A DNA stretch of 64,000 nucleotides from Vicinamibacterales bacterium (GCA_035495955.1 DATJFE010000067.1:19972-83971); one strand, 5' to 3'. Positions 4,331-36,177 are shown, counted from the first letter of the stretch. The notes: generated from the sequence alone by a model not told the origin. Numbers and translations are program-made.

Positions 4331-4359
4331 AGAGTTGGAGGTGGGGAGTTGGCAGTTGG
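4331..4359. repeat. period-7 tandem repeat (agttgg core) abutting the stop of the wHTH regulator gene
   Basis: agagttggaggtggggagttggcagttggc; agttgg occurs at 4333, 4347 and 4354. The minus-strand stop is at 4360-4362. Confidence 0.7.
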
Positions 4360-4755
4360 CTACGCCGGCTGAAAGCCGGGCGGCAGATCCGGCGACCGTT
4401 CGGGGCGCTTGGCCGCCTTGGGCAGCGCGTCGCGCACGACCTGTTCGAGCTCTTCGAGATAGGCCACGAAACGGCCGCGTCCCTCGCTCGTCAGGCGATA
4501 GAGCGTCTGTGGACGGCCGCCGTCGGTGCCGCGCCACGCTTCGACCAGGCCCGCTTCGAGCAGGACGTCGATATGCCGGCTCAAATTCCCGTCGGTCAGC
4601 GCGCAGAGCCGCTTCAGCTCGTTGAATACCGCGCCTTCCGGGCGCGTGACGAGCGAGGTCATGATCCCGAGCCGCGCCTTCTCGTGGAGGACCCGATCGA
4701 GTCCCTCGTACGCGTATCGGCCGGGTTCTTCGCGATGAGGCTGTTTCTTGGGCAT
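4360..4755 (-). CDS. winged-helix transcriptional regulator (ArsR/MarR-like wHTH)
   Basis: C-terminal 131 aa of ORF 4360..5016: MPKKQPHREEPGRYAYEGLDRVLHEKARLGIMTSLVTRPEGAVFNELKRLCALTDGNLSRHIDVLLEAGLVEAWRGTDGGRPQTLYRLTSEGRGRFVAYLEELE. ATG at 4755. It lies 2 nt downstream of the preceding membrane-protein gene. Confidence 0.8.
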   Translation of the reverse strand: MPKKQPHREEPGRYAYEGLDRVLHEKARLGIMTSLVTRPEGAVFNELKRLCALTDGNLSRHIDVLLEAGLVEAWRGTDGGRPQTLYRLTSEGRGRFVAYLEELEQVVRDALPKAAKRPERSPDLPPGFQPA

Positions 4756-4757
4756 GG

Positions 4758-5393
4758 CTATGACCGCTCCAGGTTCCACCACAGCACGAGCGCGGCGAGC
4801 AGCTGCCCGGCGCCGAACGGGCCGCCGACCCACCAGGGACTGACCGTCGCGGTCCCGCGCGCCATCCACAACAGCGCGGTGCCCGCGGCGCAGTAAAACA
4901 GCGCGACCCATCCCGTCGCCCGCGGCAGGTACGGACGCGAGGCGAAAGTCCCGAGCCCGAAGCAGATCGCCCAGAGTCCCGGCAGCAGCCGGACGAGATC
5001 CGCGCCGAGCCGGCACAGGCAGATCGTGATCGCGGTCGCCGCCATCGCGCTCGGCAGGAATTGTCCGACGACCATGCGCGTGCGGCGCCGCCGCGATGCA
5101 TCCTCGTGGACGACGTAGTTGTAGATGATTTCGATCGACCCGACCAGCGCCGCCCCGCCCGCGACGGCGGCCCAGTAGATCACCCAGCCGATCGGATCCG
5201 CACCGAGCGCGGCCGGCTGCAGCGCCGCCGCCGCGAGGCCGATCGCGCCCGCCGCCGCAAACGGCACGGAGCGGTAGCCGCGATACACCTCGCCTTTGGC
5301 GATCTGTTCGTGAATCTCGGCGATCTGGTCGAGCGCGCGGGTCACGTCCACGATCATACTTTGCAGCGTAAAGACGCTGCGGTCAAGTGCCAC
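4758..5393 (-). CDS. hypothetical polytopic membrane protein, co-oriented and near-contiguous with the wHTH regulator
   Basis: 211-aa ORF with several hydrophobic stretches (WVIYWAAVAGGAALVGSIEII, LPGLWAICFGLGTFA, GWVALFYCAAGTALLWM, GAGQLLAALVLWW). I do not recognise a family. Confidence 0.55.
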   Translation of the reverse strand: MALDRSVFTLQSMIVDVTRALDQIAEIHEQIAKGEVYRGYRSVPFAAAGAIGLAAAALQPAALGADPIGWVIYWAAVAGGAALVGSIEIIYNYVVHEDASRRRRTRMVVGQFLPSAMAATAITICLCRLGADLVRLLPGLWAICFGLGTFASRPYLPRATGWVALFYCAAGTALLWMARGTATVSPWWVGGPFGAGQLLAALVLWWNLERS

Positions 5394-5637
5394 GGCGTGA
5401 CGGCTCGGGGGCCACTGACGGCACGGACGTCACCGATCATGTCGAGACCTTGAACAGGGGAAACAAGAGATGCAGGAGTTTCTTGCAAGAGCACAAGAAG
5501 AGCTACTCCTGAGCTCCTGTCCTCCTGCAACGATCCCCCTGATCGACTCGCGATGAAGACTTCAAGACGATCAGGAAATCAGGAGTATCTTAAGAAAAGG
5601 AATTGCTCTCGAACTCCCGATCTCCTCATGTGAAGAA

Positions 5638-6468
5638 ATGATGGCCTATCCGAATTCGCAGCTCTTGACGACACCGACCGAACTGGCCGACGCATTGAAG
5701 CGCGATCGGAAGCCGCTGCTGCTCGATCTACGTCCTTCCGAGGACTTCGCCGCCGGACACATCCCGAGCGCGGTCCATCTCGATCTCTGGGGCGTCTCGC
5801 TGATCGACACGGATCCTGCGCCGCTGAAGGCGTTCATGTGGATGATCGATCATCTCTTCAACCTGCGCGGCGTCGACGCCTCGACGCCCGTCGTCGTCTA
5901 CGACGATCAGTCGGGCATGCGGGCGGCGCGCGCGTTCTGGTTCCTCGAGTACTTCGGCCACCCGCGCGTGCAGATGCTCGACGGCGGGTTCGGCGCGTGG
6001 ATCCGCGCCGGCCTGCCGGTGACCCGGGACGTGTCCGCGCCGCCGAAGAGCGCCTGGACCGGGACGCCGCAGGAACGCACGATTGCGACATGGCGCGACG
6101 TGAAAGCCCGTTTGGGGAATCCCGACACGGTCATCCTGGACACGCGCAGCGACGGCGAATACCGCGGGACAACGGTGAGGGCGAAGCGCGGCGGGGCCAT
6201 TCCTGGTGCCATCCATATCGAATGGAGCCAGAATCTCGGTCCCGACGGCGCGTTCAAGCCCGCCGCGGAGCTCCGACAGATGTACGAGCGCGCCGGGATC
6301 ACACCGGACAGGGAGGTCATCACATACTGCCAGGGAGGATATCGCGCGGCCCACAGCTACGTCGCCCTGAGACTCCTGGGCTATCCGAAGGTCCGGAATT
6401 ACACGGGATCCTGGAAGGAGTGGGGGGACCGGGAGGAACTCCCGGTCGAAGTCCCGAAAGTCTCTTGA
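5638..6468 (+). CDS. sseA: thiosulfate/3-mercaptopyruvate sulfurtransferase (tandem rhodanese domains)
   Basis: 276 aa with two rhodanese domains. Active-site loop YCQGGYRAAHS (CxxGxR) lies in the C-terminal domain. The family symbol is given loosely. Confidence 0.85.
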   Translation: MMAYPNSQLLTTPTELADALKRDRKPLLLDLRPSEDFAAGHIPSAVHLDLWGVSLIDTDPAPLKAFMWMIDHLFNLRGVDASTPVVVYDDQSGMRAARAFWFLEYFGHPRVQMLDGGFGAWIRAGLPVTRDVSAPPKSAWTGTPQERTIATWRDVKARLGNPDTVILDTRSDGEYRGTTVRAKRGGAIPGAIHIEWSQNLGPDGAFKPAAELRQMYERAGITPDREVITYCQGGYRAAHSYVALRLLGYPKVRNYTGSWKEWGDREELPVEVPKVS

Positions 6469-6533: not shown

Positions 6534-9500
6534 ATGATGAAGCGCCCAACGCGCGCGGCGGCTGCGGCAGCGTGTCTTACCGTTCTATTCGCCGCCAGCG
6601 CCTCGGCGCAGGCGGTCAAAGGCGGACTTCTCGGCAATGTTGTGGATCAGGCCGGACTGGCGCTGCCGGGCGTGACCGTCACCATCACCGAGCAGAATAC
6701 AAACATCCAATCCACCACGACGACGAACGAGTCGGGGTATTACATCTTCTCGAACCTGAAGGACGGCATCTACCGCGTCGAAGCGGAGCTCACGGGCTTC
6801 AAGAAGAGCCTCCGCAAAGATATCGAGGTGCAGGTCAATACGACGGTGCGGATCGACATGAAGCTGGAAGTCGGCGCCGTCCAGGAGACCGTCACGGTCA
6901 CGGGCGAGACGCCGATCCTGCAGACCGACCGCGCCGACACCGGACGCGTGATCCAGAGCGTGCAGCTGACCGAAGCGCCGCTCGGCTTCAACCGGAATTT
7001 TCAGGGAATGCTGCTGACCGTCCCGGGCGCCACCCGCCCGTTCCGTCCGCATTCCTCGTTTTTCAACGCGCAGGACAGTCTCTCCACGAACGTCAACGGC
7101 CAGTCGCGGCTCGCGAACAACGTCCAGATCGAAGGCATCGATGACAATCACCGGACGGGACTGCTGACCACGCTGATTCCGTCGATTGAAGCGATCGAGA
7201 CGGTCAACATTACGACGAGCGCGTACGACGCCGAGTTTGGCCGCGCGGGCGGCGCGATTACGAACGTGACGCTGCGGTCCGGGACGAACAACCTCAAAGG
7301 CGGCGTGTTCGTTTTCGGCAACACCGATAGCACGAATGCGCCCGGGTACTTTTCGCACACCGTTCCTCCCTCGTCTTACTTCCAGAGCGGTTTCACGCTG
7401 GGCGGTCCGATCCAGCACAACAAGCTCTTCTTCTTCGGCGACTACCAGCACACCGCCGACCACGGCGGCGCGACGCAGCGCGCCACCATTCCGCCGATTG
7501 CGTTCCGGACCGGCGACTTCAGCAGCGCGTCGACGATCATCTACGATCCCGCAACCGGAAACGCCGATGGGACCGGCCGCACGCCGTTTGTCGGCAACGT
7601 CATCCCCGCGAACCGAATCAGCCCGATTGCGGCGGCGCTCCTCGCCAAGGTCCCGGCGCCGAATCTGTCGGCGGCCAACGGTCAGACGAACTTCCAGCAG
7701 GACTTCACCCGAATCAAGAACACCGACTCGTTCGACACGAAGATCACCGCACAATTGAGCAAGTCCGATCAGCTGTCGGCGCGGCTCAGTTTTCTTCGGC
7801 CGAAACAGACCGATCCGCCGATCTTCGGCGTCTATGGCGGCGGCGGAAAGGATTTTTCGGGCACCGGCATCGATACCACCTACAGCACCGGCGCCAACTA
7901 CACTCGCGCCTGGAGCAGCACCTTCATCTCGGAGTTCCGCGGCGGTCTGAATTATTTCCACAACGAAGCACTGGCCCCCGACCACGGCCAGACGCTCGCC
8001 TCAGACCTGGGTATCCGGGGGGCGAACATCGATGAATGGACGAGCGGCATCACGACGATCGATATCGGGAACGGTACCGCCAGTCCGCTGATCGGGCATG
8101 CCAACAGTCTCCCGTGGGACCGCTCGGAGCGCACTGCCCAGTTCGCCGCCGTGGGCACCAAGCTGTGGGGCAACCACACGATCAAATTCGGCGAGGACTT
8201 CCGCAACACGCGCGATTTCCTGCTGCAGACGCAGGACAATGGCGGCCCGCGCGGACGATTCCAGTTCCGCGGCGGCCAGACGTCCATTCCGAGCGACGGC
8301 GCCGCGACCAGCGGCTATGCGAACGCGATCGCCTCGTTCCTTCTCGACGTGCCGTCGGTCGTCGAACGCGATCTGAAAATCGTCGATCCGGGCGTCCGGT
8401 TCTGGGCGTTCTTCACCTTCGTCCAGGACAAGTGGCAGGTGAACAAATCGCTCACACTCGACATCGGCCTGCGCCACGAGTACTACACGCCCTTCAAGGG
8501 GCTGAGCGACAAGGGCGGCCTGTCGAACTACGATCCCGTGACCAACGCGCTGCAGGTGGCGGGCTACGGCAGCGTGTCTCAGAGTGTAGGCGTGAAAAGC
8601 TACTGGAAGAACTTCGGGCCGCGGCTGGGCGCCTCGTACCGCTTGAATGACAAGACCGTCGCGCGCGCCGGCTACGGCGTGAGCACGCTGCCGTTCCCGG
8701 ACAACAGCTATGCGTACAACTTCCCCGTCAAACAGAACAACCAGTTTACGGCGCCGAACAGCTTCGTGGCGGCGGGATCGATGGCGGCGGGCTTCCCCGA
8801 TCCGATTGTCGCGAACATCCCGCCGAGCGGCCTCATCGACGCGAGCACGGCCGCACTGAGGGCGGCGTCGTTCTTCCACATCAAACCCGACCGCCACGAA
8901 GGCGCACTGCATTCGTTCAACGTCGCGGTGCAGCGCGAACTGCCGTGGCAACTGACCCTCGACGTCGCGTACGTCGGCAATCGCGGCCATGACGTCGAAA
9001 CCTCGTACGACGAGAATGCGGCGACGGTCCTAGGGCTCGATGACGCCGGCCGGCCGCTGTTCGGTCCGTTCAAAAAAACGGCGAGCGTCACCACGTGGAT
9101 CCCGCTGAAGACGTCGTACAACTCGCTTCAGATGAAAGTGGATCGCCGATTTTCGAACGGCCTTCTGTTGAACACGTCGTACACGTTGGGGCGGGGTTAC
9201 AGCTACAACACCGGAGACAGCAACGGCGGCATTCCCACGCCGGCCGATCTCGCGCTGAGCTGGGCGAGAACCGACCAGGATCGCCTCCACTCCTTCGTGG
9301 AGAGTTTCGTGTACCAGTTGCCGATCGGCCCGGCCAAGCGGTGGATCAACCGCGGCGTCGCGAGCCAGGTTCTAGGCGGCTGGCAGGTCAGCGGGTTCTT
9401 CACCGCGCAGTCTGGCACGCCGATCAACATCACGATGAGCAACGCGACCCTGCACGCGCCGGGCAATACGCAGCGTCCCAACGTCAGCGGCACGCCGAAT

Positions 9501-9892: not shown

Positions 9893-9930
9893 CGCCGCGA
9901 TCCTGTTTGGGGTCGCGGCGTTTTTGTTTT
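9893..9930 (+). terminator. intrinsic terminator of the TonB receptor gene
   Basis: Stem cgccgcgatcc (9893-9903) pairs with gggtcgcggcg (9910-9920) over 11 bp including one G-U. Loop tgtttg, followed by tttttgtttt. Confidence 0.85.
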
Positions 9931-11367: not shown

Positions 11368-11380
11368 CGGCCGGTGGGGC

Positions 11381-11415
11381 ATGAGCCATGAGCCCTGAGC
11401 CATGAGCCATAGAGC
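11381..11415. repeat. heptamer tandem repeat atgagcc x5 containing the start codon of the next gene
   Basis: atgagcc atgagcc ctgagcc atgagcc atagagc. The ATG of the fourth unit (11402) is the lipoprotein start. ATG 11381 is in frame but hits TGA at 11396. Confidence 0.85.
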
Positions 11416-13047: not shown

Positions 13048-13779
13048 ATGTCGCTGCGAATCGGATTCGACATGGATGGCGTGCTCGCCGACTTCGACTC
13101 GGCCTTTCGCGCCGTCGCGGAGCGCCTCTATGGGGCGCCGACGCCGCCGACGGGCGACGCCGATCCTGAAGCCGAACCGCGCGCGCAAGCCGAAGAAGAA
13201 GAAAAAAACGCGAGCGGCGACGAGGGGCAGGCGGGCGCGGAAGAGGCGAAGCAGCACGTTCATGCTCTTCGGCGCCGGCGCGATGCAGTCTGGCAGACGA
13301 TCGCCTCGACTCCCGACTTTTGGATGACGCTCAGGCCGGTGCAGGACGACGCCGTGCGGCGCATCCACGAGCTGGCGCTGCGCCATCGATGGGAGGTGTT
13401 CTTCCTCACGCAGCGGCCCGCAACCGAAGGCGATTCGGTCCAGCGCCAGACGCAGCAGTGGCTCATCGCGCAGGGATTCGATCTGCCGAGCGTGCTGCCG
13501 ATCGCCGGCTCGCGCGGCGCCGCCGCCGGCGCGCTTCGGCTTGATTATCACGTCGACGACAGCGCCAGAAACTGCATCGACATCAAGGCGGAATCCAGCG
13601 CAAAGCCGCTCCTGATCGTCGAATCCGGCGACACAGCCATGATCGCCCGCGCGCGGAGCCTCGGCATCGGCACCGCCGCCTCGATCTCGGAGTGCCTCAC
13701 GATTCTCGAAGAAGCGACGCTGAAGCAGGCCCAGCCGCGGCTGCTGCACAAGCTCGCGCAGCTCGTGGGGTGGGATTGA
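13048..13779 (+). CDS. HAD-superfamily hydrolase, 5'(3')-deoxyribonucleotidase (NT5C)-like, with an acidic low-complexity insert
   Basis: In-frame ATG 13048, 5 nt after the fcl stop, preceded by gagaga. MSLRIGFDMDGVLADFDSAF (DxDGV motif)...FFLTQRP...WL. Insert EAEPRAQAEEEEKNASGDEGQAGAEEAK. Confidence 0.6.
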   Translation: MSLRIGFDMDGVLADFDSAFRAVAERLYGAPTPPTGDADPEAEPRAQAEEEEKNASGDEGQAGAEEAKQHVHALRRRRDAVWQTIASTPDFWMTLRPVQDDAVRRIHELALRHRWEVFFLTQRPATEGDSVQRQTQQWLIAQGFDLPSVLPIAGSRGAAAGALRLDYHVDDSARNCIDIKAESSAKPLLIVESGDTAMIARARSLGIGTAASISECLTILEEATLKQAQPRLLHKLAQLVGWD

Positions 13780-13780: not shown

Positions 13781-13850
13781 CGGAGGTCGGGTGACGGAGG
13801 TCGGGTGACGGGGGTCGGGTGAGGGGGGTCGCGTGCCGGGGGTTCGAGGT
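13781..13850. repeat. 14-nt tandem repeat cggaggtcgggtga x~5, G-rich on the + strand, starting 2 nt after the stop
   Basis: cggaggtcgggtga cggaggtcgggtga cgggggtcgggtga ggggggtcgcgtgc cgggggttcgaggt. It contains a canonical G4 motif at 13803-13828 (GGG-4-GGGGG-2-GGG-3-GGGGGG). Confidence 0.85.
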
Positions 13851-15073: not shown

Positions 15074-15111
15074 TCAGGGGATATCGACGGCGGCCGCCGT
15101 GGGCTGCAGGC

Positions 15112-15879: not shown

Positions 15880-15893
15880 CTCTCTCAACAGGC

Positions 15894-15951
15894 GATCAGG
15901 AGACCAGAGACTCACTCTCCTTGTACTGAAGATTCTCCTGTTCTCCTGATC
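15894..15951. repeat. 10-bp inverted repeat gatcaggaga / tctcctgatc in a caggag-rich spacer
   Basis: 15894-15903 gatcaggaga and 15942-15951 tctcctgatc. The same caggag/ctcctg words fill spacer 5460-5637. Confidence 0.65.
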
Positions 15952-25894: not shown

Positions 25895-28018
25895 TCAATT
25901 CCGCAGCGGCTTCCCGGTCTTCAGCGTGTACGCGATCCGCTCGAGCGTCTTGCGCTCGCCGCACAGGCTGAGAAACGCCTCGCGTTCCAGATCCAGCAAC
26001 TGCTGTTCGCTGAGCGTCGCCGGGTGCGCGAGGCTGCCGCCGGCGAGAATCCACGCGAGCTTGCGGCCGATGAGTGCGTCGTGATCGCTGATGCGGCCGG
26101 CGCGCCATGCGAGATGGACGCCGAGCTTGAGCGCCGCGAACACGCCTTCTCCGCCGACGCGGATCGCGTCGCGCGGCCGCCTCGCCGGGCGGTGGCCCGG
26201 CGCGAGCTGGAGCGCCAGAGCCTTCGCGTCCGCGAGGAGACGGTCGCGGTTCATGGTCACCTCGTCGGCGTCGCGCAGATAGCCGATGCGGCGCGCATCG
26301 GGCGCGCTCGTTCCGACCTTCGCGAATCCGATCGTCTCGAAGACGCGCTGCACGTAGGGAAGCGGATCCCCCGGTCCAGGCGCGTCCTCCATAGCGCGCG
26401 CCAGCATTTCCTTCGTCCCGCCACCCGCGGGAATCAGGCCGACGCCGACCTCGACGAGCCCGATATAGGCCTCGGCGGCGGCCTGCACGCGGCTCGCGTG
26501 CAGCACGATCTCGCAGCCGCCGCCGAGCGTCAGCCCGGCAGGCGCGACGACGACGGGGACGTCCGCGTGCTTCAGCGCCATCGTGGCGGCCTGAAATGCG
26601 CGGACCATGAGATCCACTTCGTCCCAGTTGCCTTCCTGGGCTTCCAGCAGCAGGAGCATCAGGTTGGCCCCGGCGGAAAAATTCGGCGCGTCGTTGGCGA
26701 CGACCAGCGCGGCGAAATTGCGCGACGCTTCCGCAACGCCCGCGCGGAGCATCTCGATCGTGTCGCCGCCGATGGCGTTCATCTTCGAATGGAAGACCAC
26801 CTGCAGCACGCCGTCGCCGATATCGACAAGCGATGCGCCGGGGTTCTTGCGGACGACGCGTGACGCCTTGGGAGTCGGAGGTTGGGAGTTGGGAGTTGTC
26901 AAGACCGCCCGCGTTTCGAGCGGCCCCAGTTCCCAGCCAAAGCCCCAACGCATCGCCTTGTCGATGTCGGCGGGGGAGTACGCGATCTCGTCCGCGATCT
27001 TCTCCGTGTAGTCGAGCGTCGGTCCGAGCGTGGCCCGAAGAAACGCGCCGACCTTGTCCTTCCCTTCGTACAGCGTCCGGATACGCGCGCCGGTGGACTC
27101 GATTGAGCGCGCGGCCTCCAGCGACGGCAGCTTCGGGGTGTGCTTCGCGCGGTACTCGAGCGTGTGCGGATCGAGCACCAGGATCGCGTCGCCATTCTTC
27201 TCGTAGAACCCGCGGCCGGCTTTCGCCCCGATCATCCCCCGCGCGAGCATTCCGGCGACGAACTCAGGCAGCTCGAATGACAGCGTGCGCGCGACGTGCG
27301 CGAGAACGTCGACGCCCGCGATATCGACGGTCCTGAACGTGGCGCTCTTCGGCCGGCCGATCACGGGTCCCGTGATCGCGTCGACCTCCTCGATCGTGTA
27401 CTCGCCGGACTCGACGGCCCGCAGCACCTGCACGAGACCGAAGATGCCGATCCGATTGGCGATGAAGCCGGGAACGTCTTTCGCGAGCACGACGCCCTTG
27501 CCGAGCCGCCGATCCGCGAACTCCCCGATCGCCTCCACCACGCGTGGATCGGTCTCGGCCGTCGGGATCAGCTCCAGCAGGTGGAGATACCGGGGCGGAT
27601 TGAAGAAGTGCGTGCCGAGCCAATGACGGCGGAAACCGTCCGTTCGTCCCACGGCGATCGACGCGATCGGAATTCCTGACGTATTGGAGCTGACGACGGC
27701 GTCGGCGCGGCGGACGCCATCGACGCGCGCCATCAGCGCCTGCTTCGCGTCGAGCTTCTCGACGATCGCCTCGACGATCCAGTCTGCGTCGCCGATCGAC
27801 GGCAGGTCCTCGTCGAAGCCGCCGGTCGCGATCAACGACGCGGCGTCCGCGGTGAAGAAGGGCTCGGGCTTGAGCCGCTTCGCGCGCTCCAGCCCTTCGC
27901 GCGCGGCGTCGCGCGTCACGTCGAGCAGCCGGACGCGCAGGCCCGCATTCGCCGCGTGCGCCGCAATCTGCGCCCCCATCACGCCGGCTCCCAGCACGGC
28001 CGCGGACCGGACTCTCAT
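25895..28018 (-). CDS. fadN: bifunctional 3-hydroxyacyl-CoA dehydrogenase / enoyl-CoA hydratase (FadN-type domain order)
   Basis: MRVRSAAVLGAGVMGAQIAAHAANAG (NAD fold) ... then crotonase part ...VVFHSKMNAIGGDTIEML...ALVVANDAPNFSAGANL... 707 aa from ATG 28018, which overlaps the tetR stop (ATGA). Confidence 0.9.
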   Translation of the reverse strand: MRVRSAAVLGAGVMGAQIAAHAANAGLRVRLLDVTRDAAREGLERAKRLKPEPFFTADAASLIATGGFDEDLPSIGDADWIVEAIVEKLDAKQALMARVDGVRRADAVVSSNTSGIPIASIAVGRTDGFRRHWLGTHFFNPPRYLHLLELIPTAETDPRVVEAIGEFADRRLGKGVVLAKDVPGFIANRIGIFGLVQVLRAVESGEYTIEEVDAITGPVIGRPKSATFRTVDIAGVDVLAHVARTLSFELPEFVAGMLARGMIGAKAGRGFYEKNGDAILVLDPHTLEYRAKHTPKLPSLEAARSIESTGARIRTLYEGKDKVGAFLRATLGPTLDYTEKIADEIAYSPADIDKAMRWGFGWELGPLETRAVLTTPNSQPPTPKASRVVRKNPGASLVDIGDGVLQVVFHSKMNAIGGDTIEMLRAGVAEASRNFAALVVANDAPNFSAGANLMLLLLEAQEGNWDEVDLMVRAFQAATMALKHADVPVVVAPAGLTLGGGCEIVLHASRVQAAAEAYIGLVEVGVGLIPAGGGTKEMLARAMEDAPGPGDPLPYVQRVFETIGFAKVGTSAPDARRIGYLRDADEVTMNRDRLLADAKALALQLAPGHRPARRPRDAIRVGGEGVFAALKLGVHLAWRAGRISDHDALIGRKLAWILAGGSLAHPATLSEQQLLDLEREAFLSLCGERKTLERIAYTLKTGKPLRN
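26868..26898. repeat. gggagtt-type heptamer repeat inside fadN, encoding the interdomain linker
   Basis: ttgggagtcggaggttgggagttgggagttg on +. Read on the minus strand it encodes LTTPNSQPPTPKAS, between the dehydrogenase and hydratase parts. Confidence 0.75.
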
Positions 28019-28638
28019 CGGCCCAGGCCGCCGACGAAAACGTCCACGATCGCGTCGGCTTCGGATCGCAGTGAATACGTCCGCCGGCTGAGGATCCAGT
28101 TGGTCGCCATTTCGTCGAGGCCGCCGAAGAACAGCTTTGCCGCCAGCGTGGCATTGAGATCGCGCCGGAACGCGCCCGATTGCTGGCCCGAGACGATGAT
28201 GCCGCGGATGATGCCGAGGTACTCGCGCAGCAGCGTCGCCGAGAACCGCTCCATGAATTTCGTCGACTGCCGCAGCTCGACCTGAAAGACGATCGCCAGG
28301 CTGCGATCGCGGCCCATGCGGCCGAGATGCACCCGCGCGACCGCGCGAAGCTGCTCGATCGGATCGGACAGCGGCGCCACGCACGCGCGTCCTTCCTGGA
28401 TCGCCTCCCTCATGGTCCGCTCGAAGATCGAGACGAGAAGATCGTCCTTGCTCCGAAAGTACAGATAGACCGTGCCGGCGGCGACGCCCGCCGAACGGGC
28501 GACGTCAGCCACCTGGGCGTTGAAGAAGCCGCGCGCGGCGAACACGTCGATCGCGGCGCGCAGAATCGCCTCGCGCTTGTCTCCACGCTCGAGGGAGCGG
28601 GCGGAACGCGCCATGGTAGCCACTGAATGAATGGTCAT
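28015..28638 (-). CDS. TetR/AcrR family transcriptional regulator (FadR-like, first gene of the beta-oxidation operon)
   Basis: ...RGDKREAILRAAIDVFAARGFFNAQVADVARSAGVAAGTVYLYFRSKDDLLVSIFE is the typical TetR N-terminal HTH. Starts are possible at 28638 or 28614. Confidence 0.9.
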   Translation of the reverse strand: MTIHSVATMARSARSLERGDKREAILRAAIDVFAARGFFNAQVADVARSAGVAAGTVYLYFRSKDDLLVSIFERTMREAIQEGRACVAPLSDPIEQLRAVARVHLGRMGRDRSLAIVFQVELRQSTKFMERFSATLLREYLGIIRGIIVSGQQSGAFRRDLNATLAAKLFFGGLDEMATNWILSRRTYSLRSEADAIVDVFVGGLGR

Positions 28639-28643
28639 TCATT
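28624..28643. promoter_or_regulatory. palindromic operator TGAATGA-atgg-TCATTCA at the 5' end of the tetR/fad operon
   Basis: tgaatgaatggtcattcatt reads as a perfect 7-4-7 (28624-28641) or 8-2-8 (28626-28643) inverted repeat. It overlaps candidate start codon 28638. Confidence 0.7.
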
Positions 28644-28671
28644 AAGGCGCGCCTGTCAAGCGGACACGGCG

Positions 28672-29484
28672 CTACCGCCACCGGGTAAGGATCGTTTCCC
28701 GCTCGAAAAGCGCCACGCTCAGCAGGACCAGCACGACCCAGACGGCGGTCATCGCCCCCGAGGCGGCGACGAGCATCCAGGTCGAGATGTAGAACAGCCC
28801 CGACAGTTGGCCGACGAGCATCCCGGCGAGCGGCAGCACCAGCAGGACCGCGATCTGCTGCGCGCTGCGCGCGTCGTTCACGCGCGACGACACCGCGATC
28901 GCCGCCTGCAGCGCCGCCAGCGACGCGAAGGGCCCCAGAATGCCGAGCAGGAGCACAGTACGCATTGTCAATAGCGTCGCAAGGACGCCCGGGGACCCGA
29001 GCGCGGCGATCAGCGCCAGGTAGACAACGGTCCCGGCCGCCTCGATCGCCACTGCGGGCAGAAAAGCGGCCACCGCCTTCGCGACCAGCAGTTCCACCGT
29101 CGAGACCGGCGTCGTCAGCAGCGGTTCGAGCGTGCGTCCCTGTTTCTCGCCGACCACGGCGTACGCCGCGAGCGAGACGGCGCCGACGATCGGCGCCATG
29201 AGGAACAGCATCAGGAACTGCTGGAACATGAACGCCTCCGCCGCGGTCTGCGCGTCGAGCGCCGCAAGCGCCGGAAGATGCCCCGTGGCGGCTGCGACCA
29301 CCTGCTGCATGCTCCGGTCGTCCGCGATCGACTGGCCTGTGGCACGGGGCACCACGACGACGACGACGAACGGGAGGATCGTGCAGAGGACCACGACGAT
29401 CAGCACGGGAATGATGACCGATGGATTCGCGCGGAATTCGCGGATCTCCTTGCCGACGAGGACGGCAATCCGACGCACGTTCAT
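28672..29484 (-). CDS. ABC-2 type transporter permease
   Basis: MNVRRIAVLVGKEIREFRANPSVIIPVLIVVVLCTILPFVVVVV... 270 aa, about 6 TM segments. Its ATG overlaps the ATPase stop (ATGA). Confidence 0.8.
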   Translation of the reverse strand: MNVRRIAVLVGKEIREFRANPSVIIPVLIVVVLCTILPFVVVVVVPRATGQSIADDRSMQQVVAAATGHLPALAALDAQTAAEAFMFQQFLMLFLMAPIVGAVSLAAYAVVGEKQGRTLEPLLTTPVSTVELLVAKAVAAFLPAVAIEAAGTVVYLALIAALGSPGVLATLLTMRTVLLLGILGPFASLAALQAAIAVSSRVNDARSAQQIAVLLVLPLAGMLVGQLSGLFYISTWMLVAASGAMTAVWVVLVLLSVALFERETILTRWR

Positions 29485-30401
29485 GACGCGCTGCCCGCCA
29501 GGAGCTTGAGATACACGGCCTCCAGGGCGGGCTCCTCGTCGAATACCTCGCGGATCTCGCCGCCCGCTGTCACGAGCGCCCGAATCACCGCGGGCGCCCC
29601 CGTGTCGGGCGCATCGACAATCATCGACAGGCCGTCGGCCTCGACGCGCACGTCGCGCGCTCCGGCGCGCAGGGCGGCCTCGATGAGGCCGCCGGCCGCC
29701 GGCTTTCCACTCAATCTGACGCGCAGCCGGCAACCGAACATTTCGCGCCTCAGGGCGGACGGCTCGCCGATCGCGATCAGCCTGCGGCTGACGAGCCCCA
29801 CCCGGTCAGCCATGCGCTCGGCTTCGTCGAGATTGTGTGTCGAGACGACGATGGCGCGGCCCAGGCTGCGAAGGTGCTGAAGCAGATCGCGCACCGTGCG
29901 CGACGTCTGCGGATCCAGGTTGGCGGTGGGCTCGTCGAGCAGCACCACTTCGGGATCGTGGACGAGCGCCCGCGCCAGCGCGAGCTTCTGCTTCATGCCC
30001 TTTGAGAGGAGGACGACGCGGTCGGCTCGGCGGTCCAGGAGTTCGAACAGGCGCAGGACGCGCTCAACGGCCGCGGCCGGCTGTGCGAGCCCGAACAGCC
30101 GCGCATAGACGATCAGGTTGTCCTCGACCGTAAGGTGGTCCCAGAGTCCGGGCGTTTCGGTGAGGAACCCGATGCGGGCGCGCAGCGCGGATCCGGTTGC
30201 GCGAGTAAACGGCCGCCCGTTGACCACCACCCGGCCGGATGACGGTGGGATCAATCCCCCGAGCATCCTCAGCGTCGTCGTCTTTCCGGCTCCGTTCGGC
30301 CCGAGCAGCCCAAAGACCTCACCGCGTTTGACCTCGAAAGAAAGGTCCTCGACGGCGATCCGCTCGCCAAACCGCCGCGTCACCGATTCAACGATCAGCA
30401 T
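29481..30401 (-). CDS. ABC transporter ATP-binding protein
   Basis: Walker A GLLGPNGAGKTTTLRML, signature LSKGMKQKLALARAL, Walker B VVLLDEPTANLD. Confidence 0.92.
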   Translation of the reverse strand: MLIVESVTRRFGERIAVEDLSFEVKRGEVFGLLGPNGAGKTTTLRMLGGLIPPSSGRVVVNGRPFTRATGSALRARIGFLTETPGLWDHLTVEDNLIVYARLFGLAQPAAAVERVLRLFELLDRRADRVVLLSKGMKQKLALARALVHDPEVVLLDEPTANLDPQTSRTVRDLLQHLRSLGRAIVVSTHNLDEAERMADRVGLVSRRLIAIGEPSALRREMFGCRLRVRLSGKPAAGGLIEAALRAGARDVRVEADGLSMIVDAPDTGAPAVIRALVTAGGEIREVFDEEPALEAVYLKLLAGSAS

Positions 30402-30412
30402 GTGAGCTCAGT

Positions 30413-30445
30413 CCCGATATCCGACACCCGACACCCGACACCCGG
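30413..30445. repeat. heptamer repeat ccgacac x3 in the divergent promoter region
   Basis: cccgatat ccgacac ccgacac ccgacac ccgg. It is G-rich on the minus strand, which is the sense strand of the ABC operon 5' leader. Confidence 0.8.
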
Positions 30446-30457
30446 CGCCCCATGTCC

Positions 30458-30994: not shown

Positions 30995-33886
30995 ATGGGA
31001 GTTCGATTGGCAAGAACGGTGGTGTTGTCCGCGGCCGTCGGGATACTGACGGCGTTTGCAGCACCATCAGCAGCGCAGGTTGCCTCGGGGCGTATCGACG
31101 CCACCGTGAGCGACACAACCGGCGCCGTGCTTCCAGGAGTCACGGTCGACATCAGCGGTCCTCAAAGCCGGACCGCCGTCACCGACACGCTCGGCGAGGT
31201 TCACTTCCTGAATCTCTCGCCCGGCACCTACAGCGTCAGCGCGAAGTTGACGGGCTTCAGCGACTATCTGAACAAGAACCTCCCGGTGGCGACCGGCACG
31301 AGCGTCCCGCTCAAGATCTCGATGTCGATCGCCGGCGTCTCGACACAGGTGCAGGTCACGAAAGAAGCGCCCGTGATCGACACCAAGAAGATGACGACGT
31401 CGACCAACGTCAGCGTCGAGGAGCTCCAGAACATTCCGTCTGCGCGCGACCCGTGGGTCGTGATGCAGACGATCCCCGGCATCGTCCTCGATCGCGTGAA
31501 CGTGGGCGGCGGCGAGTCGGGGCAGCAGCCCGGCTACCAGGCGAAGGGAGCGAACGGCGGCGACAACACGTGGAACATGGACGGCATCGCGATCACCGAC
31601 ATGGCCGCCACCGGTTCCAGCTCGACGTACTACGACTTCGACATGTTCCAGGAGATGCAGGTCACGACGGGCGGCGCCGACGTATCGAACCCGACGCCGG
31701 GCATCCAGTTGAACATGGTGCTGAAGAGCGGCAGCAACACGCCGCACGGCTCGACGCGGTTCTATTTCGAGAACGAGAGCCTCGAATCGAACAACATGCC
31801 GTCGGATCTCGCCGCGACGATCGGCGGCACGAGCGGCAAGGGCAACCGGATCCATCAGTACAAGGACTACGGATTCGAGCTCGGCGGGCCGATTCTCAAG
31901 GACCGCCTCTGGGGTTGGGGCGCAGCCGGCAAGACCGACATCCAGCTCCTGACGCTCACGGGGTATCCGGATCACACAATCCTTCAGGACACCTCGTTCA
32001 AGGGCACCGGACAACTGTCGACGTCAACGCGCGCGAACTTCACGTTCTTCCGCGGCAACAAGCAGAAGTTCGGCCGTAGCGCGAGCTCGACCCGGCCGCC
32101 GGAGACGACTTACGATCAGAGCGGCCCGACCGACATGTACAAGGGCGAGGTGAACTTCGTGCTCGGGAACAACATCTTCCTCGTCGCGAAGGGCGCCCAC
32201 ATCCACGGCGGATTCCAACTGGCGCCTGAAGGCGGCATCAACGCGCAGGAGTGGATTGACGATGCCGGCGTCCAGCACGGGACTGCGGACCTCTATAAAT
32301 CGAACCGCCCGCAGGACTCGATTGGCCTGGACGGGAGCGTGTTCCGCGGGCACCACGAGCTGAAATTCGGCTACGGCTGGCGCCGGGCGCCGGTGCAGTC
32401 GTCCGACGTCTATCCGGGCAATGGCGTCATCACGGCGCACAACGGATATCCCGAGATGATTGCGTATATCCGGCGCAATTGGGCCAGCTCGGAAACCGGC
32501 GTCTATAACAGCGCCTATGCCTCCGATACCTGGACGTTGAATCGACTGACCGCCAATCTCGGCCTTCGCTGGGATCGCCAGGTCAGCTCGCTCGAGGCGG
32601 CGTCGGTTCCCGGCAGCACGGTCCTGCCGAGTCTCCTGCCCGCGATCTCGACCACGGCCGTGAAGAACGCCGTCGTGTGGAATACGGTGGTGCCGCGGCT
32701 CGGGGTCACCTACGCGATTGACGAGAATCGCAAGACGATCCTTCGCGGCAGCTACGCGATGTTCGCGTCTCAGCTGGGCGACGCCGTGGCGAGCCAGATC
32801 TCGACGATTCAATACACCGGGATCTACTACTACGCGATCGATCTCAACGGAAACAAGCTCGCGGATCCGAACGAGATACTGTTCAATCTGGGACCGATCA
32901 ATTACTACGGCTTCGATCCGAGCAATCCGACCAGCGCGACGACCAACAACAAGATCGGCAAGTATACGACGCCGCGCACGCAGGAGGTTCTGCTTGGCAT
33001 CGATCACGAGCTGATGGCCAACTTCGGCGTCAGCGCGACGTTCACGTATCGCTATTACAACCACTTCGACTGGTATCCGCTCATCGGCGTCACGCGCGCG
33101 GACTACAGCCAGGCGGGTGTGTGTACGTCGAGTGCTGCCCCCTGCGCGCCGGCGAACGGGGACACGGGTCCCGTCGGTTCGTTCAGCACGCCGTATTTCG
33201 GGATAAATCCTGCGAAGATCCCTCCCGGCCAGGGCACCAGCTATGAGGCGCGGAATGGTTACCACCAGCGCTTCCTCGGAGCCGAGCTGAGCGCCACCAA
33301 GCGCATGTCCGATCGCTGGATGGCCAGGTTCGGTTTCTCGACAAACGATCACCGCGAGTACTTCGATAATTCGAACACGTCGCAGCTCGATCCGACATCG
33401 ACGCGCGACAACCCGAACATCAACGGCGGGCACGTCATCACCCGATCGGGCGGGAGCGGCAAGAGCAACATCTTCCTCGTGCTGCCGCAGTATCAGTTCA
33501 CGGCCAACGGGATGTACCAGGCTCGCTGGGGCATCAACCTCGGCGCGAACTGGGTCTTGCGGCAGGGATATGCTGAGCCCTTCTATCGAAGCCGCGTGAA
33601 TCCCGGGGACGGACTGGGGTTTAGAAATGTACTGGCCGTCACAGACGTCACCAAATTCCGGCTGCCGGCCGTCAGCTCGCTCGACGTACGTGTGGAGAAA
33701 GCATTCCAGATTCGTCGTGCAAAAGCTGCCGTCGACCTGGACATCTTCAACATCGGCAACGCCGCGACCGTGCTCGGCCGCCAGTACGACTTGCGTCTGA
33801 GCACCAGCAGTCCCACGGGGTTCAACCATGTCCTGGAGATCATGGATCCGAGGGTCGCTCGCATAGGAGTCCGGTTCAACTTCTAG
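30995..33886 (+). CDS. TonB-dependent receptor-like outer-membrane protein with carboxypeptidase-regulatory-like N-domain
   Basis: MGVRLARTVVLSAAVGILTAFAAPSAAQ signal. GVTVDISGPQSRTAVTDTLGEVHFLNLSPGTYSVSAKLTGF. Plug-like QVQVTKEAPVIDTKKMTTSTNVSVEELQNIP. C-terminal ...RIGVRFNF. ggagg lies 6 nt before ATG 30995; ATG 30989 is an alternative. Confidence 0.85.
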   Translation: MGVRLARTVVLSAAVGILTAFAAPSAAQVASGRIDATVSDTTGAVLPGVTVDISGPQSRTAVTDTLGEVHFLNLSPGTYSVSAKLTGFSDYLNKNLPVATGTSVPLKISMSIAGVSTQVQVTKEAPVIDTKKMTTSTNVSVEELQNIPSARDPWVVMQTIPGIVLDRVNVGGGESGQQPGYQAKGANGGDNTWNMDGIAITDMAATGSSSTYYDFDMFQEMQVTTGGADVSNPTPGIQLNMVLKSGSNTPHGSTRFYFENESLESNNMPSDLAATIGGTSGKGNRIHQYKDYGFELGGPILKDRLWGWGAAGKTDIQLLTLTGYPDHTILQDTSFKGTGQLSTSTRANFTFFRGNKQKFGRSASSTRPPETTYDQSGPTDMYKGEVNFVLGNNIFLVAKGAHIHGGFQLAPEGGINAQEWIDDAGVQHGTADLYKSNRPQDSIGLDGSVFRGHHELKFGYGWRRAPVQSSDVYPGNGVITAHNGYPEMIAYIRRNWASSETGVYNSAYASDTWTLNRLTANLGLRWDRQVSSLEAASVPGSTVLPSLLPAISTTAVKNAVVWNTVVPRLGVTYAIDENRKTILRGSYAMFASQLGDAVASQISTIQYTGIYYYAIDLNGNKLADPNEILFNLGPINYYGFDPSNPTSATTNNKIGKYTTPRTQEVLLGIDHELMANFGVSATFTYRYYNHFDWYPLIGVTRADYSQAGVCTSSAAPCAPANGDTGPVGSFSTPYFGINPAKIPPGQGTSYEARNGYHQRFLGAELSATKRMSDRWMARFGFSTNDHREYFDNSNTSQLDPTSTRDNPNINGGHVITRSGGSGKSNIFLVLPQYQFTANGMYQARWGINLGANWVLRQGYAEPFYRSRVNPGDGLGFRNVLAVTDVTKFRLPAVSSLDVRVEKAFQIRRAKAAVDLDIFNIGNAATVLGRQYDLRLSTSSPTGFNHVLEIMDPRVARIGVRFNF

Positions 33887-34012
33887 CCGCGGACTACGGC
33901 CGCGGACTACGGCCGCGGAATACGGCCGCGGAATACGCGGAATACGCGGACTACGGCCGCGGAACATGCGGACTACGGCCGCGGAATACGCGGAATACGC
34001 GGAGTACGGAAC
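33887..34012. repeat. tandem array of ~12 units cggaMtacg with optional gccg insert (period 9/13), starting at the base after the stop codon
   Basis: ccgcggactacgg ccgcggactacgg ccgcggaatacgg ccgcggaatacg cggaatacg cggactacgg ccgcggaacatg cggactacgg ccgcggaatacg cggaatacg cggagtacgg. Confidence 0.9.
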
Positions 34013-34031: not shown

Positions 34032-34068
34032 CCCCCGGAGCGGCTGCGGCGGCTCCGGGGTTTTTTTT
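34032..34068 (+). terminator. strong intrinsic terminator
   Basis: ccccggagc (34033-34041) pairs with gctccgggg (34052-34060), a 9-bp GC stem followed by eight T (34061-34068). Confidence 0.9.
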
Positions 34069-34120
34069 GCGAACCTGTTTCGCCGAAGCGAAGCGGAGGC
34101 GTGCCAGCGCCATTTTCCAA

Positions 34121-34231
34121 GGCGCGAGGTGCGCGAGGTGCGTGGGGTGCGCGAGGTGCGTGGCGTGCGTGACGTGCGCACTCCCCGCACCCCTCGCACG
34201 CCTCGCACTTCGCGCACATCCTCGCACCTCA
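34121..34231. repeat. 9-nt tandem repeat (gcgcgaggt x6) followed by its inverted counterpart (cctcgcac-type x5): a ~110-nt imperfect hairpin ending 9 nt before the next start codon
   Basis: gcgcgaggt gcgcgaggt gcgtggggt gcgcgaggt gcgtggcgt gcgtgacgt gcgcact | ccccgcac ccctcgcac gcctcgcac ttcgcgcac atcctcgcac ctc. Confidence 0.85.
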
Positions 34232-34239
34232 AGGTCTCA

Positions 34240-36072
34240 ATGTCCCGGATGCAGAAGTCGGGCGCGGCGCTCGCGCTCGCGGTACTGATCGCGGCCTGCG
34301 GTGGCGGCGGCGGAAACAGCGGCAGCAACTCGGGCTCCAATCCTGGCGGCGGCACGACGCCCGCGGCCAATCCGTGCACCGCGGCCGGCGCGGCGGACGT
34401 GCAGGCCGTCGGAAGCGTCGCGGCCGGCGCCGGCGTGCCGGACAAGAAAACGCTCATCGACGGCAACCCGCGCGGCCGGCTCGCCGAGGCGCTCTGGATC
34501 CACCAGGAGGCGCAGCAGCGGCGCGCGGCACGCCCCGCGGGAGCGGGCGCCCAGCCGTCCCTCACCACGCCGTCTCCCGTCGCGGACGACGTCGGAGAGA
34601 TCGCCGTTCTCCAGGATCAGGGCGACCTCATACTGGCGGCGAATCCGTACGATCTCCGCAGTACGGGCATACGTTTCACCCGCAACGGCTCGAGCTACAC
34701 GCTGTCGAAGATCGACGGAACCTTCCGGACGTCGCTCGGCAACCAGGTCACGCTGGGCGACGACGACAGCACCGGCGTCGCGATTCCATTCTCATTTCCG
34801 TTCTACGGAATCGCGCAGACCTCCGCGTTCGTCAATTCCGATGGCAACATCACGTTCGGCGAGGAAGACAAGGAGAGCACCGAGCGCAACGTCTCGCGCC
34901 TGCTCGCCGGCGCCCCACGCGTCGCGCCGTTCCTCGCGGATCTCGATCCCACGTCCGGCGGAAAGATCTTCGTCAATGCCGCGGCGGATCAGTACACCGT
35001 GACGTGGTGCAGCGTACGCGGATTCGATTCGACGCGCACGACGACGGCTCAGGCGACGCTGCTGCCCGACGGAAGCGTCGAGATGAAGTACGGCGACACC
35101 ATCACGCTGACCGACGCGGTGGTCGGGATCTCGCCGGGCCACACGGGCACCTTCACGACCGCCGATTTGAGCGTCGCCGCTGCCGTTTCCTCGAGCGGCG
35201 CCATCGGCGAGCGCTTCGCGCAATCCGGCACGCTCGATACGCAGGCGGTCGCGAAGAAGTTCTACGCGTCGCATCCGGACAACTACGACCAGATCCTGCT
35301 GTGGAGCGATCAGCCGCTCATACACGACGCGTTCGCGTACGAGGTCACGGTGGCGAACGAGATCCGCGGCATCGGACAGGACATCTTCGACCTGTCGACG
35401 GCTTTCGGCAGCGCCGGACGGCTTCGCTCGCTGGTCGTGATGGACTATCTCGGAAAATACCCTGACGATCCGACGGCGAAATTCCTGGGCGAGAACAACA
35501 CGCTCAGCGTCATGGGCCAGGAGGTCGGCCACCGGTGGCTGGCGTACCTCGAGTTCCGGGATCGGACCGGCGCGCGCTCCGACGTGCTGCTCGGACGCGA
35601 TCTGGCGCACTGGAGCTTCTTCTTCAATTCCGACGCGTCGGTGATGGAAGGCAACCAGATCGAGGATCAAGGCGGCGGCCAGTTTAGGACGGTCGATGCG
35701 GTCAAGCGCTACAACCGCCTCGATCAGTACGCGATGGGGCTCGTGCCGCCGAGCGCCGTGCCGCCGTTCTTCTACGTCGAGAGCCCGACCACCACGCATT
35801 CGCGGGAGGACGCGCCGCAGATCGGCGTCTCGTTCACGGGCACGCGCCGCGACGTGCTCGTAGACGACGTGATCGCGATCGAGGGAGCGCGCGCGCCCGC
35901 GTCCGCCGATTCATCGAAGACCCATCGTCAGGCCTTCATCTACATCGTCGGCGCCGGACGCGGCACGGATTCGGGCCAGGTGGCCAAGCTCGATCGCGTT
36001 CGCTCGGCGTGGGAGCCGTTTTTCGCGCAGGCGACAGAAGGCCGCATGACGGCCGTCACGCGACTTCATTAG
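34240..36072 (+). CDS. lipoprotein with NIDO-like N-terminal region and metzincin/leishmanolysin-like C-terminal region carrying QEVGH in place of HExxH
   Basis: MSRMQKSGAALALAVLIAACGGGGG lipobox. ...VAIPFSFPFYGIAQTSAFVNSDGNITFGEEDKES...RVAPFLADLDPTSGGKIFV... then ...LSVMGQEVGHRWLAYLEF...LAHWSFFFNSDASVMEGNQ. The codons gtc atg ggc cag gag gtc ggc cac were checked directly. The upstream 37 codons of ORF 34129 are repeat-derived (RTPRTPRT). Confidence 0.6.
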   Translation: MSRMQKSGAALALAVLIAACGGGGGNSGSNSGSNPGGGTTPAANPCTAAGAADVQAVGSVAAGAGVPDKKTLIDGNPRGRLAEALWIHQEAQQRRAARPAGAGAQPSLTTPSPVADDVGEIAVLQDQGDLILAANPYDLRSTGIRFTRNGSSYTLSKIDGTFRTSLGNQVTLGDDDSTGVAIPFSFPFYGIAQTSAFVNSDGNITFGEEDKESTERNVSRLLAGAPRVAPFLADLDPTSGGKIFVNAAADQYTVTWCSVRGFDSTRTTTAQATLLPDGSVEMKYGDTITLTDAVVGISPGHTGTFTTADLSVAAAVSSSGAIGERFAQSGTLDTQAVAKKFYASHPDNYDQILLWSDQPLIHDAFAYEVTVANEIRGIGQDIFDLSTAFGSAGRLRSLVVMDYLGKYPDDPTAKFLGENNTLSVMGQEVGHRWLAYLEFRDRTGARSDVLLGRDLAHWSFFFNSDASVMEGNQIEDQGGGQFRTVDAVKRYNRLDQYAMGLVPPSAVPPFFYVESPTTTHSREDAPQIGVSFTGTRRDVLVDDVIAIEGARAPASADSSKTHRQAFIYIVGAGRGTDSGQVAKLDRVRSAWEPFFAQATEGRMTAVTRLH

Positions 36073-36177
36073 CGGGTGACGGGGGACAGGGGAGGGGTGT
36101 CGGAGGACGACCTCCCCGACGCCCGACCACCCCCAACGCCCGACCTCCGACCCCCGACGCCCGACGCCGACGCCCGT
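36073..36177. repeat. G-rich arm / C-rich arm low-complexity tract filling the whole spacer between two convergent stops
   Basis: gggtgacgggggacaggggaggggtgtcggagg acga cctccccgacgcccgaccacccccaacgcccgacctccgacccccgacgcccgacgccgacgcccg. Canonical G4 motif on + at 36074-36097. Multiple GGG tracts on the minus strand at 36110-36176. Confidence 0.85.

Follow-up and report, generated by a model that had tools for sequence, protein, structure and literature searches.

What generates the short tandem repeats scattered around the gene ends of a Vicinamibacterales bacterium, and are repeats at distant loci related to one another? The question is raised by a 64,000-nucleotide stretch of this genome (GCA_035495955.1 DATJFE010000067.1:19972-83971; hereinafter, the window, with positions counted from its first letter). 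Between positions 4331 and 36177, an earlier note had recognized 11 repetitive loci, all 11 of which are indeed repetitive where it placed them, and had sorted them by recurrent words into a few families, namely, (a) GGGAGTT/AACTCCC, (b) GTCGGG and (c) CAGGAG/CTCCTG, taking words shared by unlinked sites as a sign of a common generating process or a mobile seed. Our analysis suggests that the loci are probably slippage arrays with a 7-nt register, which persist in the weakly constrained DNA of gene ends, form genome-specific families and frequently have inverted partners. The window is 66% GC DNA, with values of 61%-69%. Its genes were mapped with a codon-usage model, checked with Pfam on 40 open reading frames (ORFs); word expectations were derived from a Markov-3 model of the window, and relatedness between loci was assessed by local alignment against 500 dinucleotide shuffles. 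Tandem Repeats Finder (TRF) was applied to a total of 1.6 Mb, made up of the window and 80 Vicinamibacterales loci of ~20 kb apiece.

The first explanation to be weighed is chance, namely, that the words recur simply because a high GC content makes them frequent k-mers and that each locus originated from random sequence on its own. Two of these words are in line with it: GTCGGG (83 occurrences in the window versus 63 ± 9 expected) and CAGGAG (60 versus 45 ± 6) are ordinary hexamers, and because these two are common k-mers, shared hexamers provide only a weak argument. Only GGGAGTT, present in 13 copies at 10 sites versus 2.9 ± 1.7 expected, is unusual and exceeds the k-mer expectation within the window. 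The unit is not privileged in viral contigs, where (GGGAGTT)3 was found at 6 loci, GGGGATT at 33, and two permutations of the heptamer, with unchanged composition, at 45 and 18. Against chance stand the alignments between loci. The three core loci of family (a) align with z = 8.6-9.1 and the two copies of family (c) with z = 13, the score being matched by 0 of 500 shuffles in each case, whereas control arrays with unrelated units give z = -0.7 to 2.2. Pairwise alignments within family (b) reach just z = 2-5, values that are low because G-rich composition by itself gives high scores; one family (a) member and one family (b) member align with z = 9.4. Together with the in-register runs described below, these comparisons largely refute the chance reading within the window.

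The register itself joins the first two families. In heptamer register, family (a) reads TGGGAGT and family (b) reads CGGGNGT or CGGAGGT, so that the two are variants of a single G-rich heptamer, YGGRNGT. In-register runs of this unit (at least three units, at most one mismatch per unit) occur 6 times in the window versus 0.8 expected from Markov-3 simulations, and include the family (a) arrays at 4329-4356 and 26869-26896 beside family (b) CGGRNGT arrays; since the profile was derived once the loci were known, it serves to describe them and does not test their relatedness independently. A period of 7, with 4.3-8.6 copies, was reported by TRF at 15178, 17775, 26868, 30413, 36115, 43633 and 48549. 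Canonical G-quadruplex (G4) motifs (G3+N1-7 x 4) number 6 in the window versus 0.8 expected, and 5 of the 6 lie within family (b) loci (13803-13828, 15195-15220, 30427-30451, 36074-36097 and 36114-36141), all five in intergenic DNA, where the sense strand of the adjoining gene carries the motif; family (a) arrays hold just 1-3 G3 tracts each.

The same register recurs throughout the 81 Vicinamibacterales loci. Intergenic arrays in the 1.6 Mb have periods of 7 (57 arrays), 14 (36), 21 (13) and 8 (22), with 4 arrays of period 10 and 0 of period 6, and arrays with a 7k period were found 92 times in intergenic versus 20 times in coding sequence, in DNA that is 86% coding. Their position is anchored to gene ends, given that, of the 214 intergenic arrays that have a gene end upstream, 111 begin no farther than 25 nt from that gene's stop codon. 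G exceeds C on the sense strand in 84 of these 111 near-stop arrays (median skew +0.28), compared with a median skew of -0.12 for the arrays farther away and 0.0 for 495 array-free post-stop 40-mers, and the skew does not differ between co-directional and convergent contexts or between short and long spacers. Moreover, an array built from the reverse-complement unit lies no more than 200 nt away in 60 of the 111, versus 24.1 ± 3.5 under shuffled pairing, and folding yields long hairpins with tandemly repetitive stems at 6825-6910 of locus L041 and in L026, L043 and L058. What escaped the earlier note is the anchoring to stop codons, the strand preference, and the fact that many G-rich and C-rich 'pairs' belong together as arms of a single inverted structure.

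The units are diverse, the 67 arrays of period 7 comprising 54 different canonical heptamers, and they are shared preferentially within genomes. When two array sites of one genome are separated by more than 1 kb, they share at least five 7-mers in 12.1% of pairs across the 81 loci, versus 2.8% of between-genome pairs and 2.5% of pairs from GC-matched genomes; in absolute terms, 28 within-genome pairs share words versus 6.9 ± 2.6 after permutation of the labels, with a maximum of 16 in 2000 permutations. Because within-genome word sharing exceeds the permutations, the relatedness of one genome's dispersed arrays is a property of the whole lineage, and independent origin from frequent k-mers, which this result contradicts as well, is in our assessment a very improbable account of the loci. 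Hence, the proposal that the loci are related beyond chance, plausibly through a common generating process, holds, carried by the 7-nt register, the YGGRNGT unit and the excess of within-genome sharing rather than by shared hexamers. Between genomes, the spacer just past the stop codon of a FadB-like gene (window positions 25895-28018, minus strand) provides a set of orthologous sites, which carry differing units, or none, across genomes. Unit type is shared, at different copy numbers, in two pairs: GGATTTG arrays of different lengths occupy one site in L012 and L023 (81% FadB nucleotide identity), and GTTGG-type arrays are common to the orthologous site in L042 and L044 (74% identity). Units of the GGTTCAGG type are found in L055, L057, L071, L072 and L074.

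Within the window, the sense strand is G-rich at all five loci of family (b). The plus-strand array at 13781-13850, composed of CGGRGGT/CGGGTGA heptamers (TRF period 14, 4.5 copies), begins 1 nt past the stop codon of the gene at 13048-13779 (+), and its RNA is unstructured (z = +0.7). On the minus strand, the CGGGGGT/CGGATGT array at 15160-15221 begins 1 nt past the stop codon of a HAD hydrolase gene (15223-15879, -) in a G-rich, 149-nt intercistronic spacer (15074-15222). The distal part of this spacer is the stretch at 15112-15150, which reads GGGAGCTGAGAGTTGGGAGCTG on the minus strand and which had been listed in family (a); it contains no exact GGGAGTT/AACTCCC, carrying AACTCTC and CAGCTCCC instead, and aligns to family (a) with z = 4.2. 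Because the exact heptamer is missing, we consider it a weak member, whereas the listing of 4331, 17775 and 26868 in that family is upheld. The array at 30410-30445 (-; CGGGTGT x 4.6) lies in a 5' leader, 8 nt upstream of the ATG of an ABC ATPase gene (29481-30401, -). Finally, the plus-strand CGGGNGA array at 36074-36106, which is itself a G4 motif, begins 1 nt past the stop codon of the gene at 34240-36072 (+) and faces the minus-strand array at 36110-36176 (CGGGCGT x 8.6), which begins 1-7 nt past the stop codon of a convergent tetratricopeptide repeat (TPR) gene (36178-38250, -) and is, relative to that gene, G-rich on the sense strand. The two form a convergent pair of G-rich arrays on opposite strands of a single 105-nt spacer; a hairpin in 36110-36176 is no better than in shuffled sequences (z = -1.5 and +0.2). 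These two sites can therefore not be called unlinked; 15112-15150 and 15182-15220, too, have a spacer in common. The array at 36074-36106 holds GTCGGA instead of GTCGGG.

Family (a) has the opposite polarity, its sense strand being C-rich (AACTCCC) at the three core loci, where the exact heptamer or its complement occurs once in the first (4344) and twice in each of the others (17775 and 17797; 26884 and 26891). The minus-strand array at 4329-4359 abuts the stop codon (4360-4362) of an HTH_34 regulator gene, reads CCAACTGCCAACTCCCCACCTCCAACTCT in the sense direction and has a lone AACTCCC partner at 4302-4308. The other two are located inside ORFs rather than in spacers. The array at 17775-17805 (+; AACTCCC x 4.3) lies within the last 14 codons of an HlyD-type membrane-fusion gene (16609-17817, +) and encodes ...VTPNSTTLNSQGVR* in the C-terminal tail, whereas that at 26868-26898 (-) has a sense strand reading AACTCCC and specifies TTPNSQPPTPKA, the linker by which the 3HCDH and ECH domains are joined in the FadB-like fusion protein, the relatives of which come solely from Acidobacteriota/Vicinamibacterales metagenome-assembled genomes (MAGs; best match, 80% identity). 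This linker is short and hypervariable in the clade of the window, compared with ~60 residues in other orthologues; in the clade members L002-L005 and L051, the ~60 residues are replaced by hypervariable low-complexity linkers, and that of L003 is itself a repeat (PETVTVTV x 2).

Family (c) is of a different kind. Its copies at 5569-5640 and 15951-15877 align over 76 nt with 74% identity, a match with E = 1e-4 against 2 Mb that covers non-repetitive sequence, including the loop, and both are purine-arm/pyrimidine-arm hairpins reaching a start codon. The first (GATCAGGA...CTCCCGATC, + strand) stops at the ATG of a rhodanese gene (5638-6468, +), and the second (15877-15957, - strand; CAGGAGATCAGGAGAACAGGAGA...TCTCCTGATCGCCTG) fills the spacer from the stop codon of a DUF1684 gene to the ATG of the HAD hydrolase gene, with a fold of z = -3.2 for 15880-15967 (-). 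Family (c) thus comprises two copies of a duplicated 76-nt leader hairpin, a relationship that stands despite CAGGAG being a common word. Another purine-arm/pyrimidine-arm hairpin (5455-5545, +; CAGGAG...CTCCTG x 3; z = -2.4) occupies the same divergent spacer as 5569-5640.

Duplication of a hairpin, loop included, speaks for a mobile element, that is, a hairpin resembling repetitive extragenic palindromes (REP) or miniature inverted-repeat transposable elements, which a transposase would have copied to gene ends and slippage would subsequently have diversified. Such an origin is also suggested by the family (a) sites 4328-4367 and 26868-26907, which are 80% identical over 40 nt and have the irregular unit GGAGGT at the same position, by the post-stop location and the hairpins, reminiscent of REP and of bacterial interspersed mosaic elements (BIME), and by the genome specificity of the families. 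For family (c) and for this pair of sites, copying of whole elements is possible. By contrast, the (GGGAGTT)n arrays, which were found as (GGGAGTT)3 in at least 120 metagenome contigs spanning 33% to 72% GC, lack a conserved flank or end motif: in the 12 nt beside the arrays of high-GC contigs, among the matches listed, no position exceeds 0.21 bit in 78 upstream and 77 downstream flanks, so that the shared flanking motif that the earlier note had suggested searching for did not emerge. No transposase, including the Y1 transposase domain, was detected among the 40 window ORFs scanned with Pfam. All-against-all comparison of the window spacers returned low-complexity or 70%-80% matches at most and no near-identical palindromic copies, orthologous sites have different units, and many arrays are single-armed and non-palindromic. 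A transposon-like seed with defined ends is not supported because neither a flank motif nor a transposase in the window was found, and we regard mobility as quite improbable for the arrays at large; the 'mobile seed' with target sites that had been invoked for them is likewise not supported. In one of the metagenome contigs (L092, 790-890; Ga0310810_10381616, 61% GC), which belongs to another organism and derives from the same sample as L001, a contig introduced below, family (a) architecture takes a textbook form, with a stop codon followed by (AACTCCC)3, a GGTTC-repetitive loop and (TTGGAAG/TTGGGAA)n.

If the arrays were not moved, they could have been selected. A genome-specific factor, such as an RNA-binding protein, an RNase or a small RNA, might read the heptamer as punctuation of the mRNA 3' end, with the families co-evolving with their reader. 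Several observations would fit: unit type is kept at orthologous sites despite 19%-26% gene divergence, strand preference is strong and family-specific, the families are genome-specific, and near-stop arrays across genomes over-use certain sense words, TCAGG being present in 16 arrays versus 4.1 expected and GGTTC in 17 versus 5.2. The unit diversity within a single genome speaks against such a reader, with at least eight unrelated units in the window, as do the searches for known signals. No candidate factor was found. Shine-Dalgarno-like motifs (GGAG/GAGG/AGGA) occur in 34 of the 111 near-stop arrays versus 36.6 under the unit-permuted null and are hence no decoys, and stop codons in all three frames, which could act as a 'stop trap', occur in 24 versus 19.5 (z = 1.5), so that neither SD-like motifs nor stop triplets rise above composition. 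Rho-related logic, under which the skew would differ between operon interiors and operon ends, was likewise discarded, the skew being equal across the contexts and spacer lengths named above. There is no match to known RNA families: in a scan of the window with Rfam 15, only a tRNA-Glu passes the gathering score, and at E <= 1 the long hairpins at 4191-4279 and 34124-34225 are matched, spuriously, by models of miRNA precursors. The arrays are absent from the terminator-like hits and do not belong to the intrinsic terminator class. On balance, a binding-site role appears possible but rather doubtful. A more specific version, in which Vicinamibacterales would label the 3' ends of genes and operons with genome-specific heptamer arrays and hairpins with repetitive stems, and a trans-acting factor of the lineage would read them as post-transcriptional 'punctuation' that defines or protects the ends of mRNAs, the word drifting between genomes and new arrays being copied from existing ones instead of arising by separate slippage events, we deem unlikely.

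We therefore return to slippage in a 7-nt register at gene ends. Under this reading, replication slippage would grow and homogenize arrays in place, the 7-nt register being the one favoured in bacteria, and inverted duplication or template switching could create the complementary arms. New arrays may be seeded from words already frequent in the arrays of a genome, and such seeding would therefore give rise to genome-specific families without transposition machinery. Arrays persist where constraint is lowest, that is, in spacers that are 3' untranslated or intercistronic and in the tails and linkers of proteins. They would be transcribed within the 3' ends of mRNAs, where their main effect may be structural: family (b) would place a G4-capable tract on the sense strand just past the stop codon, and inverted pairs would form long hairpins with repetitive stems that could pause transcription or protect the transcript 3' end.

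Several results sit uneasily with this reading and should be weighed against it. G4 formation fails as a lineage-wide principle (23 of the 111 near-stop arrays versus 17.3 under the null, z = 2.2) and is limited to family (b) of the window genome, and single-arm arrays are unstructured as RNA (z = -0.7 to +1.9). In the stems, G.U mismatches outnumber A.C mismatches 30 to 19 (p = 0.15), an excess that is not significant, so that selection at the RNA level is unproven. An 8.9-kb contig that is 99.88% identical to the window (L001, JGI metagenome sample 3300033412) displays no copy-number change in the arrays that it covers, and hypermutability is, on that account, not supported; retention of arrays at 74%-81% gene identity, in turn, outlasts what would be expected of neutral filler. 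Polarity is a further difficulty. Among the matches listed for (GGGAGTT)n, an (AACTCCC)n arm lies within 120 nt upstream of the array in 29 of 65 cases and downstream in 2 of 65 (contigs of at least 60% GC), that is, the C-arm comes first in 29 hairpins versus 2, for which slippage by itself offers no explanation. The sense strand likewise reads AACTCCC in 25 arrays abutting a stop codon versus 4 in the opposite orientation, which slippage alone leaves unexplained, and in 10 versus 1 of the arrays inside ORFs (the latter by hand count). This preference agrees with the three family (a) loci of the window, and family (b) has the opposite polarity, a difference that is not accounted for by slippage alone. 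Polarity by family, together with a genome-level vocabulary devoid of mobility signatures and with persistence, leaves some room for a selected 3'-end signal.

How do these arrays compare with known repeats? They belong to a class already described in other bacteria, in which their function is unexplained. Mazel et al. reportedly described, in 1990, the cyanobacterial short tandemly repeated repetitive (STRR) heptamers CCCCA(A/G)T, TT(G/T)GTCA and CAACAGT. To our knowledge, STRR are confined to cyanobacteria; the TCGGTCA unit of the window is one base off TTGGTCA, which we take to be the STRR2 unit. In Beggiatoaceae, a single unit, TAACTGA, is repeated just upstream of start codons (MacGregor, 2015, PMC4679880). 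The Vicinamibacterales arrays resemble STRR and TAACTGA repeats in being intergenic tandem heptamers of few unit families per genome, but are mostly located past stop codons and have far more diverse units. More broadly, heptanucleotides are the commonest class of long simple sequence repeats (LSSR) among bacteria whose genomes are large and GC-rich, with polymerase slippage as the proposed cause (Mrazek, 2007, as summarized in PMC4679880 and PMC4692102). Family (a) and the arrays that are not G-rich fit this broader class, which, according to these summaries, comprises units of 5-11 nt in the large, GC-rich genomes of non-pathogens, is dominated by heptamers and has a scattered phylogenetic distribution; as in the LSSR so summarized, units are arranged head to tail beyond chance, and periods that are not multiples of 3 are depleted in coding DNA. 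Anchoring to stop codons, G bias of the sense strand, hairpins with repetitive stems, genome-specific units and Vicinamibacteria do not figure in the summaries of that work.

Family (b) comes closest to the GGGAATC repeats of Xanthomonas and the GGGGA(C/T)T repeats of Nostoc, the former present at 186 and 183 loci in two genomes, 89%-93% of them intergenic, and the repeats of both genera located at a mean of 28 nt from the 5' neighbouring ORF, with 70-75 cases of convergent pairs (Rehm et al., 2015, PMC4692102). Those repeats form G4 in vitro and have neither a tie to a gene class nor a known function (PMC4692102). Like them, the window arrays consist of tandem 7-nt units with a G3+ tract, lie near gene ends, include convergent pairs and vary strongly in sequence and length between related species; family (b), with at least four G3+ tracts at heptamer spacing, shares all of the sequence-level features of the class but the unit consensus, which is YGGRNGT (CGGGNGT, CGGAGGT, TGGGAGT) instead of GGGNATC, and its G4 is a sequence motif. 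Further differences are the acidobacterial host, the many unrelated, non-G-rich units in one genome, and the location of the pre-start array on the coding strand, whereas the upstream repeats of the known systems favour the non-coding strand. REP/BIME, finally, have units of 20-40 nt in many near-identical copies, a GTAG/CGTC tag and a cognate transposase (PMC3733652). The arrays share with them the 3' untranslated or intercistronic site, the capacity to form hairpins, genome-specific families and frequent inverted pairs; they differ by locus-specific sequences and internally tandem arms, and neither tag nor transposase was found in the 64-kb window, where arrays, read by eye, begin with CGG or TCGG except for a CGTC at 48547.

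The few families recognized at the outset do not account for all loci, given that at least eight further arrays of the window have unrelated units (CATGAGC, TCGGTCA, CGCGCCT, CGCGGAATA, GCGCGAGGT and its complement, CCCCRATT, TCGAGGC and CCGCGGAAC). Two lie directly past stop codons, namely, (CCCCRATT) x 3.4 at 1876-1902 (+), after a thioesterase gene (1449-1871, +), and (CGCGCCT) x 7.7 at 43633-43686 (-), after a sulfatase-TPR gene (43687-45792, -). Two others fill entire spacers, (CATGAGC) x 5 at 11380-11415 (+) the 34-nt spacer of two co-directional genes and (TCGGTCA) x 7.4 at 48549-48600 the 59-nt spacer of two convergent genes. The array at 33886-34008 (+) consists of CGCGGAATA/CCGCGGACTACGG units starting from the stop codon of a TonB-dependent receptor gene, with a fold of z = -3.5 for 33887-34010, and is followed by a U-tract hairpin at ~34035-34070; another such hairpin, at 9893-9920, lies downstream of an array, and because of these U-tract hairpins, the arrays upstream of them are placed inside 3' untranslated regions. 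Farther on, at 34122-34227 (+), GCGCGAGGT x 6 is followed by its complement, CGCACTCCT x 5.6, and the surrounding 34110-34239 folds into the strongest repetitive-stem hairpin of the window (-84.3 kcal/mol, z = -8.4). This array pair and the unlinked array at 43633-43686 have seven 7-mers in common (CCTCGCG/GCCTCGC), which would make them a fourth family within the window. The region 39018-45792 (-) around the latter array contains three successive genes with C-terminal TPR repeats, two of which (41519-43594 and 43687-45792), flanking the CGCGCCT array, also encode a sulfatase domain.

Other repeats of the window are not tandem. A near-perfect inverted repeat with ~30-bp stems lies at 4192-4278, 15 nt past the stop codon of an S15 peptidase gene, and occurs once in the window plus 2 Mb of loci. 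The palindrome ATGAATGGTCATTCAT at 28615-28671, directly upstream of a TetR-family gene (28015-28614, -), is probably the operator of that gene. The 3' half of the tRNA-Glu(CTC) gene is repeated ~9 kb downstream (53710-53784/62644-62716; 75 nt at 80% identity, ~37 nt of which form a near-exact core), and the interval between the repeats has a lower GC content (0.61-0.63) and carries an HTH_17 excisionase-like ORF, a radical-SAM/SPASM and sulfatase pair, and MacB/FtsX permease genes. The interval 53710-62716 resembles an integrated island that bears att-like repeats; no integrase was seen.

With the window, gene-end heptamer repeats, present in Xanthomonas, Nostoc, Burkholderia and Beggiatoaceae, now extend to an abundant, little-studied soil phylum; a full-text search of the literature returned no description of such repeats in Acidobacteria. 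We know of no function ever assigned to gene-end heptamer repeats. On the practical side, the arrays lengthen or shorten the ends of ORFs and can mislead gene callers, assemblers, and predictors of G4 or terminators. More importantly, any explanation of these repeats faces new constraints, namely, anchoring to stop codons with a sense-strand bias, a complementary array in more than half of the cases, and genome-specific words which, nonetheless, persist at orthologous sites through 20%-25% gene divergence. Because of these constraints, Vicinamibacterales, for which many long-read MAGs exist, are well suited for discriminating between neutral slippage and a 3'-end signal.

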